A DNA stretch of 64,000 nt from Candidatus Nomurabacteria bacterium (GTDB lineage: Bacteria > Patescibacteriota > Patescibacteriia > HK-STAS-PATE-3), in assembly GCA_023898465.1 (NCBI GenBank), contig CP060223.1, forward strand, positions 288,001 to 352,000. The letters are read 5' to 3'. Numbering within the stretch: position 1 is the first letter of the stretch; every line of letters begins with the position of its first letter. This document shows positions 5,382 through 14,341 of this stretch, in pieces. The notes beneath the pieces were generated by a model, which saw only the letters and a program-made list of their open reading frames with translations, was not told where the DNA came from and searched no databases. A program made the position numbers and the translations under genes.

Positions 5382-5456
5382 GGCCCTATCGTCTAGTGGC
5401 TAGGACGCATGGTTCTCATCCATGTAACAGGGGTTCGATTCCCCTTAGGGCTACCA
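5382..5456 (+). tRNA. tRNA-Glu (anticodon CTC), CCA encoded
   Basis: Cloverleaf folded by hand: acceptor GGCCCTA/TAGGGCT, D-arm GTCTAGTGGCTAGGAC (near-identical to E. coli tRNA-Glu), anticodon stem CATGG/CCATG with loop TTCTCAT, T-arm AGGGGTTCGATTCCCCT, discriminator A, CCA. Confidence 0.9.
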
Positions 5457-7666: not shown

Positions 7667-10600
7667 ATGGACTCTGCCCCATTAACACTACAAACGAAGA
7701 CACTGCAGAGGTCTTCCGATCTAAATAATTACAGACTCTATCGCGCAGCTCTTGAATGGGAGTTGATTGATCCTATTGTCATAGAAGACCGGGATGACAT
7801 GCATTCCGAAAGTAGTTGGCGTGATCGTCTTGAGCCGTATCATCATCAAGTAACTAACCTAATAACTTTTTGTCGTCGCCTACCTGTTACTTTACTGGCG
7901 GATGATGTCGGGTTAGGAAAAACAATTAGTGCTGGCCTAGTTTTAAGCGAGTTAATTTCGCGCGGGAGAATTTCAAAAATATTAATAGTTTGCCCAAAAA
8001 TACTTCGAGATCAGTGGAAAGAAGAATTGGAAATAAAGTTCCGAATTCCGTCCACAATTGTGACAGGAAGAGAATTAATTACGGCAAAGCCTCCTGAAGA
8101 ACCAGGAGCGGTAATTACCACATACAATACGGCCAGACTGTATTTAGATAGAATTGACCAGAATGGTTTTGAAATATTGATACTTGATGAGGCGCATAAA
8201 TTGCGGAATCTATATGGTGTTGACCCAACACCTCAAGTTGCAATTAAATTCCGTAAAGCTCTGGCTGACCGGATGTTTAAGTACGTATTAATGTTAACTG
8301 CAACGCCGATCCAGAACAGACTATGGGATCTCTACTCGTTGGTTGACTTATTAACCGTTGCACGCGGCCATGAAAATCCCTTTGGAACGCCAGGTATTTT
8401 TGCGAGAAAATTTATTGCAGATAGTCGCACACAAGCGCGTCAGCTTAATCCGGAGATGCGGGATGAGTTTCGCTCAATTATTTACGGTTATATGTCTCGG
8501 GTTCGTCGTGGAGATGCAAAACTCCACTTCCCAGAGCGGGTAGTACAGTTGCATAAAGTTGACCCAACACCAGAAGAATTGCAGTTGATCGGTGTGGTCG
8601 GAAAATCTATACAACAACTGAATGCGCTTACACAAATTGTAATCCTCCAAGCTTTGGTGAGTAGTCCAGAAGCGCTAATAAAGATGTTAGAAGGAATGGC
8701 TAAAAAAGGAACCGTACCGCGTGAGGTGTTGGCGAACGTTAAGGAATCAGCCAAAGAAATTCAAATCACTACAAAACTAAAAGGTTTGGGCGCGTTAGTT
8801 GAAAAACTTAGAAAGGAGCAACCCAATACTTGGCGGGTGGTAGTTTTTACAAGATGGCGAGAAACTCAAACAACTATCGAAACTTTTCTTGAAAAGCAAG
8901 GAGTAAAATGCGGCTTGATAAATGGCGATTCAAGTAAGCGAAATCAGGAAACAATCCAAAGATTTAAAAAAGACTTACCAGACATTAATGTAATTATTTC
9001 TACTGAAGCAGGTTCGGAGGGCGTTAACCTTCAGGCCGCTAATGTTTTGGTTAATTACGATCTCCCCTGGAATCCAATGATAGTGGAACAAAGAATAGGT
9101 CGTATTCAAAGACTTGCTTCTAATTATGCAAATGTTTCTATTTTTAATATTGTTTTGCAAAATACCTTTGAAGAATATATTGTAGGGCGCTTGATGGAAA
9201 AGTTGCAGATGGCTTCTCATGCAATTGGGGATATTGAAGCACTATTGGAAGCATCCGGCATTGATGAAGGTGAAGAAAATGGCTCAAGTGGTTTTGAAGA
9301 AAAAATTCGCCAGTTAGTAGTTGCATCTTTAGCTGGAAAAGATGTTGAGCAGGCAACTCGTAAAGCTGAACAGAGTATTTCAGAAGCTAAAACAGAATTA
9401 GACCATGAAGAAAAGAACATTAATGCTTTACTTGGGGGGATGAGTGATTCTCTAGATTCTGGTCCAAGATGTCCGAAGCTTCCTCAAACTACTAAGTCGA
9501 TGGATGTCCGTGATTTTACTACGGCTGCTCTTATGAGCTTAGGCGCGGAACTACATCCAAAAAAGGATGGTTTATTAGTTTCACAACTTGCTGGGAAAAA
9601 AGAATTAATCCGATTTGATAATAACACTCTGAGCAGTGAAGAGGAGAGTGTCTTATATGCACCGGGAACTTCAACTTTTGAACGCTTAGTCCATAAAGTT
9701 GCAAATGTAGGAAAACACATTGTTGAAGACCTTGATAAAAACCCCCAACAGCAAATTGAGAAAGTAAGTCGTCAATGGGTCGAAAGTTTTGGCGGAGACT
9801 TCGAAAATGTAACGGTAGAGGACGTTTCTCGATGTTTTGCAGGAGTAGCAATAATTCGTGCAAGATCAACAGTAGCTCACGATAGTTATGAGCGTCTCAT
9901 TGAGGTTTCGTGCGCTCCCACTGAGCATTTCAGTTTTGTGACAAGAACGGGATTGGAACCCATCGGAGACTATATTGAAAATCCGACATCTGTTGGTGCG
10001 CTTTCAGAAAAATTAATTGAAAAAGCCAGCCAAGACTCGAGTATTCTTGAGTTCTGTAGATTTTATTTAGAACGAAGATCTCAAGAAATTGCCTCCGCAG
10101 GAAATGACGAAAGAAAAAAGAAAAAGCTTGAGGATGAGTTTACGCCCCGTCTTGAATTTTCCCTAGTCGGTCTTGAGGGCAAGGTTCATCGGATAGTTAA
10201 AAATCAGGTCTCTTATAGAATTGAACGTGAGGGCCAATACAAAAGTACCCTCATGATAACCCCCTCTTCTGGGCAAGTTGATATGCCGGGGATGGGACAA
10301 TGCATGAAAACAGGTAAGACTGTACCGAGCGATTGCTTAGCAAAGTGCGAAATAAGCGGACTTATAGTATTGCGGCATTTTCTTGATCAATCAGAGATCA
10401 GTAATCGACTGGCGCTCCCTGAGCACATCGTTTTATGTACGTTAAGCAACAAGCGAGTGCTAGCGGACGAAGCTATAAAATCAGATGTTACGGGCAAACT
10501 AGTCGCAAAGAAGTTTTTAAAAACATCTTCTCTGAGTGGCAAATTCGCTGAACCACAGTTCATTAACACTTGTGAGTTTACAAAAACAGAAGTTCTGGAA

Positions 10601-11194
10601 AGCGAAATTGCGGTCAGCCAGATTTCAGGAAAAAGATATCGCATTGATGAGCAACTTAAATCCGCAGTTTCAGGAAAACTAGGCCATCGACAAGAATTTG
10701 TAGCAAGTAGTATTTCATCAGCCCCACTTCTTGAAGAAGAAGCCATTCGTTCGGTCACTGGAAAATTTTGTGCACCAATGGAAGCGAGGCCCTGCACTTG
10801 GAGTGGTCGAAAGTGTCACCCCGAAGACCTTAGGACTTGCGAGTTGACCGGAGTCCAAATTCATTCAGAGTACGTAACGCTCGAACCACCAATTCGTTTA
10901 GAAACCCTAAATAATCTTTTGAATGGCACGAGGAGCAAATCTGACAAATTGGAAGTATGGCCTTCACTTTCAAATAGCGTTACAGCTTTATTAAAAGCAA
11001 AACGTTGTAAAATTGAAACAGCAGAAGTTTCACCTAGTGACGATATTTTGGCCGCTTCTATAGAGCTTCGAACTTTTCTAGGCCTGCGCGTGAGTCACAT
11101 TGGCGTACTTTATTCAATAAAGGATGGATCCGTAGTCGGGCGTGTTGCTAGAGGCAAGCGTGGTGATAAGGGCTGGAATCAAACTAAGAACTAA
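7667..11194 (+). CDS. SNF2-family DEAD-like helicase (1175 aa) with a long uncharacterised C-terminal extension containing 15-aa tandem repeats
   Basis: Motif I ADDVGLGKT, motif II LILDEAHKLRN, motif III LTATPIQN, helicase-C STEAGSEGVNLQ and motif VI DLPWNPMIVEQRIGRIQR. About 600 aa after the helicase core have no recognised domain. Low-GC region. Confidence 0.85.
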   Translation: MDSAPLTLQTKTLQRSSDLNNYRLYRAALEWELIDPIVIEDRDDMHSESSWRDRLEPYHHQVTNLITFCRRLPVTLLADDVGLGKTISAGLVLSELISRGRISKILIVCPKILRDQWKEELEIKFRIPSTIVTGRELITAKPPEEPGAVITTYNTARLYLDRIDQNGFEILILDEAHKLRNLYGVDPTPQVAIKFRKALADRMFKYVLMLTATPIQNRLWDLYSLVDLLTVARGHENPFGTPGIFARKFIADSRTQARQLNPEMRDEFRSIIYGYMSRVRRGDAKLHFPERVVQLHKVDPTPEELQLIGVVGKSIQQLNALTQIVILQALVSSPEALIKMLEGMAKKGTVPREVLANVKESAKEIQITTKLKGLGALVEKLRKEQPNTWRVVVFTRWRETQTTIETFLEKQGVKCGLINGDSSKRNQETIQRFKKDLPDINVIISTEAGSEGVNLQAANVLVNYDLPWNPMIVEQRIGRIQRLASNYANVSIFNIVLQNTFEEYIVGRLMEKLQMASHAIGDIEALLEASGIDEGEENGSSGFEEKIRQLVVASLAGKDVEQATRKAEQSISEAKTELDHEEKNINALLGGMSDSLDSGPRCPKLPQTTKSMDVRDFTTAALMSLGAELHPKKDGLLVSQLAGKKELIRFDNNTLSSEEESVLYAPGTSTFERLVHKVANVGKHIVEDLDKNPQQQIEKVSRQWVESFGGDFENVTVEDVSRCFAGVAIIRARSTVAHDSYERLIEVSCAPTEHFSFVTRTGLEPIGDYIENPTSVGALSEKLIEKASQDSSILEFCRFYLERRSQEIASAGNDERKKKKLEDEFTPRLEFSLVGLEGKVHRIVKNQVSYRIEREGQYKSTLMITPSSGQVDMPGMGQCMKTGKTVPSDCLAKCEISGLIVLRHFLDQSEISNRLALPEHIVLCTLSNKRVLADEAIKSDVTGKLVAKKFLKTSSLSGKFAEPQFINTCEFTKTEVLESEIAVSQISGKRYRIDEQLKSAVSGKLGHRQEFVASSISSAPLLEEEAIRSVTGKFCAPMEARPCTWSGRKCHPEDLRTCELTGVQIHSEYVTLEPPIRLETLNNLLNGTRSKSDKLEVWPSLSNSVTALLKAKRCKIETAEVSPSDDILAASIELRTFLGLRVSHIGVLYSIKDGSVVGRVARGKRGDKGWNQTKN
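10301..10893 (+). repeat. about 12 tandem degenerate 15-codon repeats encoding [CS]-x-h-[ST]-G-[KR]-x8 within the helicase C-terminal region
   Basis: Protein-level periodicity: CEISG, CTLSNK, SDVTGK, SSLSGK, CEFTKT, SQISGK, SAVSGK, SSISSA, SVTGK, CTWSGR, CELTGV at 15-residue spacing. Confidence 0.7.
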
Positions 11195-11195
11195 T

Positions 11196-12686
11196 ATGAA
11201 CCCTCTACTTACAAAAACCGATTATCTTCTTTACCGGGAATGCCCAAAGAATGTTTGGTATAAAATCCAAAAACCTGAATTGTATGCTACATCGGAGCTA
11301 ACAGAGTTTGAAAAATCGATAATGGAAACAGGTAATGAGGTTGAAAAGATTGCAAGGCAACTTTTTCCAAACGGGGTGTTAGTAACTTATCGTGATGCGC
11401 GCGGTCAAGCTGAGACACAAAAGCTATTGGCGGAGAACAAGGATGTGATTTTTCAGCCAGTTTTTGTCAAAAATAACTTTTTGGCTGCTATTGATGTTCT
11501 ACAAAAAGAAAAGAATGGCAAGGGCTACAATGTTTACGAAATAAAATCGACTAGTGATGTAGATAAGAAAACACATTTTCACGACCTAGCATTTCAAGTA
11601 AACGTTCTCAGAATGACAGGCCTGGGAATTAATAAATCATTTGTCATTCATCTAAACTCTGAATATATTCGAAAGGGAGAAATTGAGCTGGATCAGTTAT
11701 TTAAAGTATCAGATGTGACGGATGAAGTAGAAAGTCTTTTACCGGATGTTGCGACTGAGGCGGAAGAAGCATTGAAGTATATTAGCCAAACTTCTGAACC
11801 AGAGGGGTACTGCTGCTGTATTTATAAAGGTCGATCAAGGCATTGTTCAACCTTTCAGCTAGCGAACCCCGAAGTACCCGAATATAGTGTCCACGATATT
11901 TCTAGGATAGGGGTAAGCAAGGCTAAATTAAAAGAGCTAATTGACGGAAGTATTTTTCACCTGGACAAGATTCCGCCACACATTAAATTAAGCGAAATTC
12001 AACAAGGTCAAGTTGAAACCTATAAATTGAATAAGGTATTAGTAGATAAGGAAAGAATTGCGGAAGAATTTAGTGGTCTCACATTCCCACTTTATTTTCT
12101 TGATTATGAAACATTTCCATCAGCAATACCAAGATATGATGGCTTTTCACCATATAAACAAATTCCGTTCCAGTATTCTGTTTACAAACTAGATTCAGTC
12201 GAGAGTGAGCCAACTCATTTTGATTTTTTGTACTCTGGTCCCGAAGACCCCAGCAAGCACTTTGCCGAGTCTTTAAGGGAACATATCGGGGATAAAGGCT
12301 CGATCATCGTTTGGCATAAAGACTTCGAGTGTGGCAGAAATAATGAAATAGGTAGTCGAATTCCTACTTCGAAGGCTTTTTTTGACTCTGTTAATCAGCG
12401 AGTATACGATCTCGAAGACATTTTCAAGAAACAATACCACGTTCATCGAGATTATAAGGGAAGCACATCTATTAAAAACGTATTGCCTGTTTTAGTGCCA
12501 GAATTAACGTATAAAGACCTTGAAATTCGTGATGGTGGCAGTGCAGCGGATAGTTGGGACAAAATAATTAGTGGTGTATATAACGAGACAGAGAAAGAAA
12601 AGGTAATAAAAGATTTAAAGATTTATTGTGGTCTTGATACATTTGCAATGTATGCTATTTGGAATTGCTTGAACAAGCTACTCTAA
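11196..12686 (+). CDS. Cas4/RecB-like PD-(D/E)xK nuclease with Cys cluster fused to a DEDD-like 3'-5' exonuclease domain (DUF2779-like architecture)
   Basis: N-terminal Cys (YRECPKN), D...EIK nuclease motifs, QxxxY-like motif, CCC-x8-C cluster, then FLDYETF (Exo I-like DxE) and YDLEDIF...H motifs. Start is 1 nt after the helicase stop, so translationally coupled. Confidence 0.6.
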   Translation: MNPLLTKTDYLLYRECPKNVWYKIQKPELYATSELTEFEKSIMETGNEVEKIARQLFPNGVLVTYRDARGQAETQKLLAENKDVIFQPVFVKNNFLAAIDVLQKEKNGKGYNVYEIKSTSDVDKKTHFHDLAFQVNVLRMTGLGINKSFVIHLNSEYIRKGEIELDQLFKVSDVTDEVESLLPDVATEAEEALKYISQTSEPEGYCCCIYKGRSRHCSTFQLANPEVPEYSVHDISRIGVSKAKLKELIDGSIFHLDKIPPHIKLSEIQQGQVETYKLNKVLVDKERIAEEFSGLTFPLYFLDYETFPSAIPRYDGFSPYKQIPFQYSVYKLDSVESEPTHFDFLYSGPEDPSKHFAESLREHIGDKGSIIVWHKDFECGRNNEIGSRIPTSKAFFDSVNQRVYDLEDIFKKQYHVHRDYKGSTSIKNVLPVLVPELTYKDLEIRDGGSAADSWDKIISGVYNETEKEKVIKDLKIYCGLDTFAMYAIWNCLNKLL

Positions 12687-12690
12687 ACCT

Positions 12691-13392
12691 ATGAGCTTTC
12701 TTAAGATTTTTAGTGATGATTCTAAAGACAAGCCAAAAGAAAATGATAGTCGGAAACCTGAATGTCCATACTGTCAGGGCGTTTTAGTTAAAATTCCTGC
12801 TAGAAAAACAAAATGTTTTCACTGTGGGAAATATATTTTTGTACGAACACAGACAAAGGACAGAAAGCTCGTTTTGGTTACTGAAGAAAATTCGGCCGCG
12901 ATAGACTCTGAATGGGAGTCAAAACAAGCCGCTACGATCACTTCATTGGTGGAGAAAGTAGATTTTACAAAGAAAAAAGAAGGTCTGCGCGAAGGGTTTG
13001 GGGACAAGGAACCCTCCGTTAGTGACATAAAGTGGGGCTTGTGGAACAAGAGGCTTCAGGAAGCAATGAAACGCAATGATTTTTCAGAACTTTCAGGAAT
13101 ATATTTTCAAATGGCTCTGCGCTTGCACGAAAGTGGAAAAGACAGCTTTAAACTTCAGGGCCAGGCTCAAAAAATGTTTTTGTTTAAAGAAAAGCAAAGC
13201 GGTGTTGTTTCTAGCGTAGAGGTTTTTTCTAGAGATGGCTGTGAAGAATGTAAGAAAATAAACGGAAAGAAATTTGTTATTTTTGAAGCACTAAAACTCA
13301 TGCCACTACCCGTTCAATCCTGCACAAACAAACTGAATAAGAATGCGCCCAATGGTTGGTGTCGATGCACTTTTCTTCCTTTTATAGATTAA
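12691..13392 (+). CDS. double zinc-ribbon protein (hypothetical)
   Basis: N-terminal CPYC-x18-CFHC and C-terminal CEEC...C-x3-C...CRC motifs. Begins 4 nt after the nuclease stop. Confidence 0.5.
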   Translation: MSFLKIFSDDSKDKPKENDSRKPECPYCQGVLVKIPARKTKCFHCGKYIFVRTQTKDRKLVLVTEENSAAIDSEWESKQAATITSLVEKVDFTKKKEGLREGFGDKEPSVSDIKWGLWNKRLQEAMKRNDFSELSGIYFQMALRLHESGKDSFKLQGQAQKMFLFKEKQSGVVSSVEVFSRDGCEECKKINGKKFVIFEALKLMPLPVQSCTNKLNKNAPNGWCRCTFLPFID

Positions 13393-13545: not shown

Positions 13546-13574
13546 GTTGACAGGGCTTTTTTGTTATACTATTC
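13546..13574 (+). promoter_or_regulatory. sigma70-like promoter of the hrcA operon (TTGACA-17-TATTCT)
   Basis: Consensus -35 hexamer, 17-nt spacer, reasonable -10, immediately upstream of CIRCE. Confidence 0.55.
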
Positions 13575-13579
13575 TTGTT

Positions 13580-13615: not shown

Positions 13616-14341
13616 ATGAAGCTCTCAGAACGACAACAACACATATTACAGGCCGTGATTCAAGAACACCTGGTGCAGGGGAAGCCGGTTGGTTCGCAGC
13701 AACTGGTGACGGCCGGTGGATTCGACGTGTCGAGCGCGACTATGCGCAATGAAATGGCTGAATTAGAGGAAAAGGGCTTTTTAACGCATCCCCACACCTC
13801 AGCCGGTCGGATTCCGACGGAGCAGGGTTGGCGCTACTACCTCGACCATATCATTGAAAAAAAAGAGCTAAGTAAAAAGGAAGAAAGCTATCTGCAGCAG
13901 CAAGTGAAAAGCAGCGAGCCAGCTGGTCCGCAAAAAGTGAAAACCTTAGCCAAAGCACTGGCTGAGCTGTCAGAAGAAGCCATCATGATCGGTTTCGCGC
14001 CAAATGATGTGTACTACACCGGCTTGCGTAACCTTTTCTCTAAACCGGAATTCCAGGATTTTGCCGTGGTGACGCAGTTGTCTGAAGTGATTGACCATTT
14101 GGACGAGGCCTTGTCTCGCTTATTTCTACGAAAAGAAAAGTCCCAGCAGGATGTAACAGTATTAGTGGGACAGGAGCATCCTTTTGGCGCTGACTGCAGT
14201 GTCATTATGACGCAGATTCCGGTGGCCAAGGGGAATGCGACCGGTATACTCGGTATCCTGGGCCCGATGCGGCAGCAATATGCAGACAACATTGCTCGAT
14301 TAGATTATTCTCGTCATTTACTTACTGAATTATTTTCCTAA
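13616..14341 (+). CDS. hrcA: heat-inducible transcription repressor HrcA
   Basis: N-terminal winged helix (ILQAVIQEHL...PVGSQQL) and context: CIRCE upstream, grpE-dnaK downstream. Confidence 0.8.
   Translation: MKLSERQQHILQAVIQEHLVQGKPVGSQQLVTAGGFDVSSATMRNEMAELEEKGFLTHPHTSAGRIPTEQGWRYYLDHIIEKKELSKKEESYLQQQVKSSEPAGPQKVKTLAKALAELSEEAIMIGFAPNDVYYTGLRNLFSKPEFQDFAVVTQLSEVIDHLDEALSRLFLRKEKSQQDVTVLVGQEHPFGADCSVIMTQIPVAKGNATGILGILGPMRQQYADNIARLDYSRHLLTELFS

Follow-up and report, generated by a model that had tools for sequence, protein, structure and literature searches.

A DUF2779 dual nuclease beside an SNF2-family motor in a low-GC island of a Candidatus Nomurabacteria genome: a probable split helicase-nuclease acting on foreign DNA

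Our analysis of a 64,000-nucleotide stretch from Candidatus Nomurabacteria bacterium (assembly GCA_023898465.1, contig CP060223.1, positions 288,001 to 352,000; hereafter the window) concerned a protein of the DUF2779 family in which a Cas4/RecB-like PD-(D/E)xK nuclease domain is followed by a DEDDy 3'-5' exonuclease domain, and whose gene lies directly behind that of an SNF2-family ATPase (Table 1). We read these two genes and a third one as a horizontally acquired cassette, and consider it probable that the motor and the nuclease form a split helicase-nuclease, with the degradation of foreign DNA as the most likely role, in which the dual nuclease would be the effector that can be exchanged. 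The processing of host DNA ends is a serious alternative. The two-nuclease architecture is already in print, and the window protein is an additional member with the full set of Cys residues; the part worth following up is the conserved cassette of SNF2 protein and dual nuclease, together with the swapping of partners within it.

The C-terminal half of the protein matches Pfam DUF2779 (PF11074): the alignment of residues 300-425 to profile positions 1-126 reaches 123.5 bits (E=7.9e-36), well above the gathering cut-off of 23.3. In an alignment of the window nuclease with 80 relatives from genome loci (81 sequences, the relatives at 44-69% identity), D303, E305, E378, D405, Y477 and D481 are unchanged throughout. 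An AlphaFold2 model places D303 and E305 (Exo I), within the sequence FLDYETF at residues 301-307, on strand beta1, E378 at the start of the helix that follows strand beta4, inside H374-K-D-F-E378, and Y477 and D481 (Exo III, Y477-x3-D481) on the long C-terminal helix. Because D303/E305 and Y477/D481 occupy the classical Exo I and III positions, and E378 probably that of Exo II, the domain is of the DEDDy class, strictly D-E-E-D-y, and its Exo II is probably H374-x2-F377-E378. D405 is invariant as well, but it lies on strand beta5, away from the classical Exo II position, and may be an alternative or additional ligand. A preliminary description, made from the sequence of the window without database searches, had recognized the D-x-E of FLDYETF as Exo I, in agreement with the invariance and the strand position reported here; it had also taken YDLED (residues 404-408) and a later His as a further exonuclease motif, a place that most likely belongs to H374xxFE378 and Y477xxxD481 instead. 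Comparison by hhalign with the ExoX-like and RNase_H_2 exonucleases of neighbouring genes gave weak local matches only (E=0.11 and 0.26), in which HKDFE was paired with HNAKFD of the ExoX-like proteins (E=0.11) and YCGLD with YCxDD of the RNase_H_2 proteins; they were taken as a pointer to where Exo II and Exo III lie and not as proof. In a Foldseek search of the PDB, the C-terminal half found 3'hExo, ERI2 and Maelstrom, ranked after the Cas4-type matches, and thus shows an RNase H-like exonuclease fold. Together with the PF11074 match, these exonuclease structures sustain the DnaQ-like 3'-5' exonuclease fold that had been suggested for this half, the subtype being DEDDy and not DEDDh.

The N-terminal half has a Cas4-type fold. 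The top-ranked Foldseek matches in the PDB were the Cas4 protein Pcal_0546 (4r5q, E=2.5e-4), a Cas4-Cas1 fusion (7mi4) and MGME1, and the PADLOC Cas4 model matches residues 12-182 (E=4.6e-7). The fold search was adopted because a profile built from 32 sequences is too shallow for remote homology against the PDB. The putative catalytic motif runs E50...D100...E115-x-K117...Q134, with D100 in AIDVL (residues 98-102), E115 and K117 in YEIKST (114-119), and the Gln in Q134-VNV-L138, which makes it a Q-x3-L and not a Q-x3-Y motif; D100, E115, K117 and Q134 are unchanged in 81/81 aligned sequences. As for the Cys residues (C206-C207-C208...C217, with C16 further upstream in YRECPKN, residues 13-19), C206, C208 and C217 are invariant in the 81 sequences, and C16 is invariant in the 79 that are complete at that site. 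C207, by comparison, varies among the relatives (D/C/S/T), so that the conserved pattern is C16...C206-x-C208-x8-C217: the four-Cys site of the preliminary description stands, but the CCC-x8-C by which it was said to be completed becomes C-x-C-x8-C, an unusual spacing. To judge from this pattern, an Fe-S cluster is probably bound, with C16, C206, C208 and C217 as putative ligands. A Pfam scan of residues 1-300 at E<=10 gave no match to Cas_Cas4 (PF01930), PDDEXK_1 (PF12705) or helix-hairpin-helix (HhH) families; the Pfam search of both halves that had been proposed as a check therefore names the C-terminal half as DUF2779 and leaves the N-terminal half without a family. Since Pfam DUF2779, PADLOC Cas4, the AlphaFold2 model and Foldseek agree, both fold assignments of the preliminary description hold. 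It had quoted motifs that are all found at the expected places in the translation, and had named loss of the catalytic residues among homologues as one observation that would speak against it, whereas the residues of both domains are invariant in the alignment.

The linker that joins the two domains, about 80 residues long, equals the catalytic cores in its degree of conservation; H233, D234, R237, G239, S241, D250, Q269 and Q272 are invariant. Its stretch HDIxRIGxSKAKLxELI might be HhH-like, which is only an idea from the look of the sequence, and there is no Pfam HhH match to it. The AlphaFold2 model, calculated from the 32-sequence alignment, has a mean predicted local distance difference test score (pLDDT) of 81.9 and a predicted template modelling score (pTM) of 0.77, and its confidence within the linker is low to medium.

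An exact-sequence lookup of the nuclease returned no record. Its closest relative is 94% identical, and the relatives belong mainly to Patescibacteria, for example Giovannonibacteria. Among the candidates scored, 2358 DUF2779-type homologues had E<=1e-5, and the family counts 7613 cluster representatives (50% identity) at E<=1e-3 and 2053 at E<=1e-30; these numbers, the PF11074 score and the invariance of the residues argue that the motifs are not due to chance. DUF2779 has been classified as family F.17 of the RNase H-like superfamily, in the 3'-5' exonuclease clade, and both DUF2779 and COG2251/PF13482 (family F.13) co-occur with DUF83, a PD-(D/E)xK domain (Majorek et al. 2014, PMC3985635), which is the DUF83+DUF2779 architecture that the preliminary description had named. 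A DUF2779 protein of JCVI-syn3.0, MMSYN1_0389, was described as a fusion of a Cas4-like and a DEDD nuclease in which the general-base position is occupied by a tyrosine and two of the four Cys residues are retained (2026, mSphere, PMC13621843). The window protein follows the same plan, with a Cas4-like N-terminus and a DEDD-type C-terminus.

The SNF2 gene ends with a TAA at 11192-11194, base 11195 is a T and the ATG of the nuclease gene begins at 11196, confirming the 1-nucleotide distance noted earlier. Translational coupling of the two genes is plausible from this 1-nucleotide gap, which recurs in a related locus (L001). The SNF2 protein matches Pfam SNF2-rel_dom (3.4e-26) and Helicase_C (4e-21); motifs I, II (DEAH), III and VI are intact, and DDVGLGKT, DEAH, TATP and QRIGRIQR are invariant in six orthologues. 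Residues 661-1175 have no Pfam match, so that the C-terminal 500-600 amino acids are without a family. Within this part, positions 10259-10891 (residues ~865-1075) encode about 14 tandem repeats, each some 15 residues long and built around a [ST]-G-[KR] core; Cys residues are scattered through them, and Pfam has no match. From its sequence, the array could be a solenoid for DNA binding or for the docking of a partner.

The association between motor and nuclease was followed from both sides. The helicase-side sample comprised 80 metagenome loci with full-length relatives of the SNF2 protein (53-74% identity), 38 of them with >=1.7 kb on both sides. A protein of about 500 amino acids, belonging to one blastp single-linkage cluster, adjoins the SNF2 gene in 30 of these 38 well-flanked loci, in three arrangements: upstream on the same strand, downstream on the same strand, or convergent. 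Detectable DUF2779 relatives lie beside the SNF2 gene in 24/80 loci (14 upstream and 9 downstream on the same strand, and one unclassified, its tblastn spans overlapping). When ten divergent members of the cluster were checked against Pfam, nine proved to be PDDEXK_1/Cas_Cas4 plus RNase_H_2 (PF13482) proteins and in one RNase_H_2 alone was detected; some of these sister-type nucleases are convergent with the SNF2 gene. Because adjacency at 30/38 loci extends across two nuclease families, the partnership of this SNF2 clade with Cas4-like plus DEDDy nucleases is conserved. Pairwise identities of helicases and nucleases (26 pairs, the points not being independent) correlate with r=0.94, which is consistent with inheritance of the two as a unit. 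The 8/38 well-flanked loci without the nuclease carry UvrD-PDDEXK, UvrD-like or unrelated genes. No SNF2+DUF2779 or SNF2+COG2251 pairing was found described in the literature searched.

Seen from the nuclease side, in a sample of 80 genome loci encoding DUF2779 relatives, the picture is different. An SNF2 gene adjoins DUF2779 in about 7/80 of them (L001/L043, L004, L050, L065, L066 and L068), in two gene orders, and the remaining loci are mostly beside genes for DsbA-like proteins, RNase_H_2 or ExoX-like exonucleases, RpoD or DnaG. A link to helicases across the whole family was therefore rejected, as a minority of DUF2779 loci have one, and the family as a whole is independent of SNF2. The preliminary description had seen in two nuclease folds beside a translocase a machine for DNA end processing or foreign-DNA degradation; the survey supports this, with the helicase link being specific to one SNF2 clade. 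A second helicase partner was observed in about 10/80 DUF2779 loci, as an adjacent superfamily 1 (SF1) helicase of about 1600 amino acids with a C-terminal MTES_1575/DUF559 nuclease (PADLOC PDC-S37/Hhe-like), in L071 (3191-7987), L073, L081, L018 and L022, with fragments in L003, L007, L009, L011 and L039.

Base composition sets the three genes apart from their surroundings. The guanine-plus-cytosine (GC) content of the island is 40.2% against 48.0% in the rest of the window, and that at third codon positions (GC3) amounts to 33-35%, compared with 49-60% for the neighbouring genes. The transitions, close to 7600 and 13400, are abrupt, and no other 5.7-kb stretch of the window has a lower GC content. 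It is the low GC and GC3 with sharp edges that lead us to read the island as horizontally acquired. No att-like direct or inverted repeats were found at its edges, and no tRNA gene adjoins it, the nearest being tRNA-Glu at 5382-5456, 2 kb off. The third gene encodes a Cys-rich protein without a Pfam, NCBIfam or PADLOC match. In L163 (5187-5930), where the nuclease is 94% identical, it is followed in the same position and with the same 4-nucleotide spacing by a homologue of 72% identity, and a homologue with 31% identity is near a DUF2779 gene in L018 (6348-7046, minus strand), beside a different helicase; the Cys-rich protein thus travels with the nuclease.

Table 1. Positions in the window of the island, its three genes and the domains of the nuclease.
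Feature	Position	Strand	Details
Three-gene low-GC island (SNF2, dual nuclease, Zn-ribbon open reading frame)	7667-13392	+	GC 40.2%; GC3 33-35%
SNF2-family ATPase/translocase	7667-11194	+	1175 amino acids; helicase core ~residues 55-530
Dual-nuclease open reading frame	11196-12686	+	496 amino acids, stop-free translation; stop codon 12684-12686
Cas4/RecB-like PD-(D/E)xK nuclease domain	11196-11846	+	residues 1-217
Inter-domain linker	11847-12089	+	residues 218-298, mostly helical
DEDDy 3'-5' exonuclease domain, RNase H-like fold	12090-12686	+	residues 299-496; Pfam DUF2779 core 300-425
Cys-rich Zn-ribbon-like protein	12691-13392	+	233 amino acids; starts 4 nucleotides past nuclease stop; CPYC...CFHC and five more Cys

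The island is flanked by ordinary chromosomal genes, GAPDH and a GT4 glycosyltransferase upstream and hrcA downstream, the open reading frames after hrcA being taken to be grpE and dnaK. The HrcA homologue (13616-14341) has 241 amino acids against a profile of 338 positions in NCBIfam, which it matches in two stretches with a score of 186.7 against a cut-off of 197.2, and it may be shortened. A promoter-like site close to hrcA, at 13547-13575, comes from a scan no better than shuffled controls: promoters and terminators in the window were fewer than in such controls, and the scan is hence uninformative.

How the two proteins could work together is suggested by their domains. The SNF2 motor would load on duplex DNA and track along it using ATP, and through a physical interaction would bring the nuclease to DNA ends, nicks or stalled structures or switch it on there. 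Cas4, AddB, EXO5 and Dna2 act on 5'-ended strands; by analogy, the Cas4-like domain is predicted to degrade 5'-ended single strands, and the DEDDy domain would remove nucleotides from the 3'-ended strand in the 3'-to-5' direction. Both strands would then be degraded with opposite polarity by a split machine working like AddAB, AdnAB or Dna2, with a superfamily 2 (SF2)/SNF2 motor. Around the SNF2-nuclease pairs the gene content differs from locus to locus and includes genes for RmuC (4 loci), DUF2130, DNA methylases, RhuM, HepT, AbiEii, ThsB-TIR, SIR2, resolvase and Bro-N, and in L001 there are a serine recombinase gene and a helix-turn-helix gene upstream. DUF2779 homologues at 31-37% identity occur on 29 plasmids, and a search of phage genomes gave no DUF2779 homologue. 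Three of the plasmid copies, L164 (Planktothrix p2), L165 (Aliarcobacter pM830MA) and L166 (Rhodoferax), lie directly after the gene of a GHKL (MzaB-like), NACHT or AAA (IetA-like) ATPase, and the operons around these three include genes for ResIII/DEAD helicases, PLD nucleases, a WYL regulator and a dGTPase. Such variable flanks and plasmid contexts resemble defence islands, and the SF1 helicase with an MTES_1575 nuclease beside about 10/80 DUF2779 genes is a further defence-like signal.

Several points weigh against the degradation of foreign DNA by a split machine, or against parts of it. SNF2 enzymes as a rule move along duplex DNA and do not unwind it, which makes it hard to see how single strands would reach the nucleases. 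The window nuclease is not matched by Pfam Cas_Cas4 or PDDEXK_1, and sequence searches of the PDB with phmmer and with the 32-sequence profile gave chance matches only, so that one match to a hidden Markov model (HMM), the fold and the motifs are what the N-terminal assignment rests on. Model confidence is low only at residues 32-46 and in the Cys-rich loop, residues 207-241, where it bears on the putative Fe-S site. Neither a methylase nor any other evident component for telling self from non-self lies in the cassette, the pair of SNF2 and nuclease is absent as a system from PADLOC v2, and the DUF2779 family has been termed uncharacterized (PMC13621843).

Other points concern the family, and are at the same time what speaks for its members as housekeeping nucleases of DNA repair or recombination, which, with or without the SNF2 motor, would resect or trim host ends, flaps or damaged termini and in small genomes stand in for AddAB/RecBCD, RecJ or Exo-type functions. 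Most DUF2779 genes of Patescibacteria have no helicase neighbour and stand in core-type contexts, beside dsbA-like, rpoD, dnaG and exonuclease genes, and the Mycoplasma homologue MMSYN1_0389 is quasi-essential in axenic culture in JCVI-syn3.0 (PMC13621843); taken together, the two point to housekeeping as the family's task. The lack of a methylase or any other self/non-self element in the cassette likewise favours DNA repair for at least some members. We give this explanation a real, if minor, chance of being correct for the window, and retain foreign-DNA degradation as the more probable role of the cassette described here.

It is improbable, by comparison, that the two genes are adjacent without any functional coupling and that the nuclease acts on its own. 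In favour of this reading, an SNF2 gene is found at few DUF2779 loci (~7/80), the nuclease is missing at 8/38 well-flanked SNF2 loci, and no Shine-Dalgarno-like sequence is evident ahead of the nuclease ATG. However, nucleases of this type, from two families and in three arrangements, adjoin 30/38 of the SNF2 relatives, helicase and nuclease identities co-vary (r=0.94), the 1-nucleotide spacing is shared with L001 and low GC is common to all three genes. An RNA-processing enzyme, whose DEDD domain would trim RNAs from the 3' end and whose SNF2 partner would act on RNA polymerase in the manner of RapA, is still harder to credit, with many DEDD enzymes being RNases, structural matches that include ERI1, 3'hExo, RNase T and RNase D, and a RapA match of the SNF2 protein (4e-36), partial and far short of the cut-off, as the points in its favour. 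A Cas4 of CRISPR adaptation, to which the PADLOC Cas4 HMM match and the Cas4 fold could point, is the least credible: the neighbours are GT4, SNF2, the Zn-ribbon open reading frame and hrcA and not cas genes, no cas families occur among the neighbours in 160 related loci, Pfam Cas_Cas4 has no match, and the protein has an extra DEDDy domain in a family with non-CRISPR contexts.

Among known systems, Hachiman HamAB, Gabija GajAB, Zorya ZorD, DISARM DrmD, BREX BrxH and Hma resemble the cassette in that they pair a helicase or SNF2 motor with a nuclease effector and occur in changing surroundings of an island-like kind, but the window nuclease is of a different type and their companion genes are absent. 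DISARM, BREX, Zorya and Hma were rejected because the partial matches of the SNF2 protein stay below cut-off (DrmD, 215 against 610; ZorD, 73 against 1500; BrxH/BrxHI and HmaA also far below) and the island has no DrmABC, PglX/Z, ZorABC or methylase. AddAB, AdnAB, RecBCD and Dna2 have fused SF1 helicases, unlike the separate SF2/SNF2 protein that is the motor here, and the 3'-strand nuclease is of the DEDDy type and not a second RecB domain; Pfam finds no helicase domain in the window nuclease. With a separate SF2 motor and a DEDD-type second nuclease, the pair falls outside the AddAB/AdnAB/Dna2 families, and we know of no Chi-recognition element for it. MrfAB, the mitomycin repair helicase and DEDDh exonuclease of B. 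subtilis, and WRN, a DEDDy exonuclease with a RecQ helicase, are both without a Cas4-like domain, and their helicases, the DEXH/Ski2-like MrfA and RecQ, belong to families other than SNF2. Cas4 itself (SSO0001, Pcal_0546, types I-C and I-G) lacks the additional exonuclease domain, and the window nuclease has no CRISPR-cas context and a Cys spacing of C-x-C-x8-C against the C-x2-C-x5-C of Cas4.

The nearest relatives are in the DUF2779 family itself (F.17; MMSYN1_0389 and Mbov_0804), with which the window protein shares the PF11074 domain, the order of the two domains, the conserved D...ExK and DEDD residues and the tyrosine at the general-base position. It differs from MMSYN1_0389 in having all four Cys residues and not two, and from the mollicute UU173-type proteins in lacking their long insertions, being about 500 amino acids long; the UU173 model (NCBIfam NF045869), which has a cut-off of 225, gives it 75.4 bits and covers the C-terminal part only. 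Unlike most DUF2779 genes, the window copy is linked to an SNF2 gene. The COG2251/TM0106-type RecB family nucleases (PDDEXK_1 or Cas_Cas4 with PF13482; F.13) are a sister family, as the window protein matches neither PF13482 nor PF12705, and they are joined to DUF2779 through blastp single linkage only. Some of them are fused to the SF1B helicase domains AAA_11/AAA_12: proteins of 1131-1195 amino acids beside the SNF2 clade in L112 (804-4391, minus strand) and L115 (1415-4810) combine an N-terminal nuclease region, in which PDDEXK_1 was detected for L112, with RNase_H_2 and the helicase, and L118 (1413-4808) would be alike from its size and cluster. By their predicted domains, the fusions in L112 and L115 resemble Dna2 in layout, with a DEDDy 3'-5' exonuclease as an extra domain. 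In size, in the order of a Cas4-like followed by a DEDDy domain, and in adjoining the same SNF2 clade, the COG2251/TM0106-type nucleases are the counterparts of the window protein.

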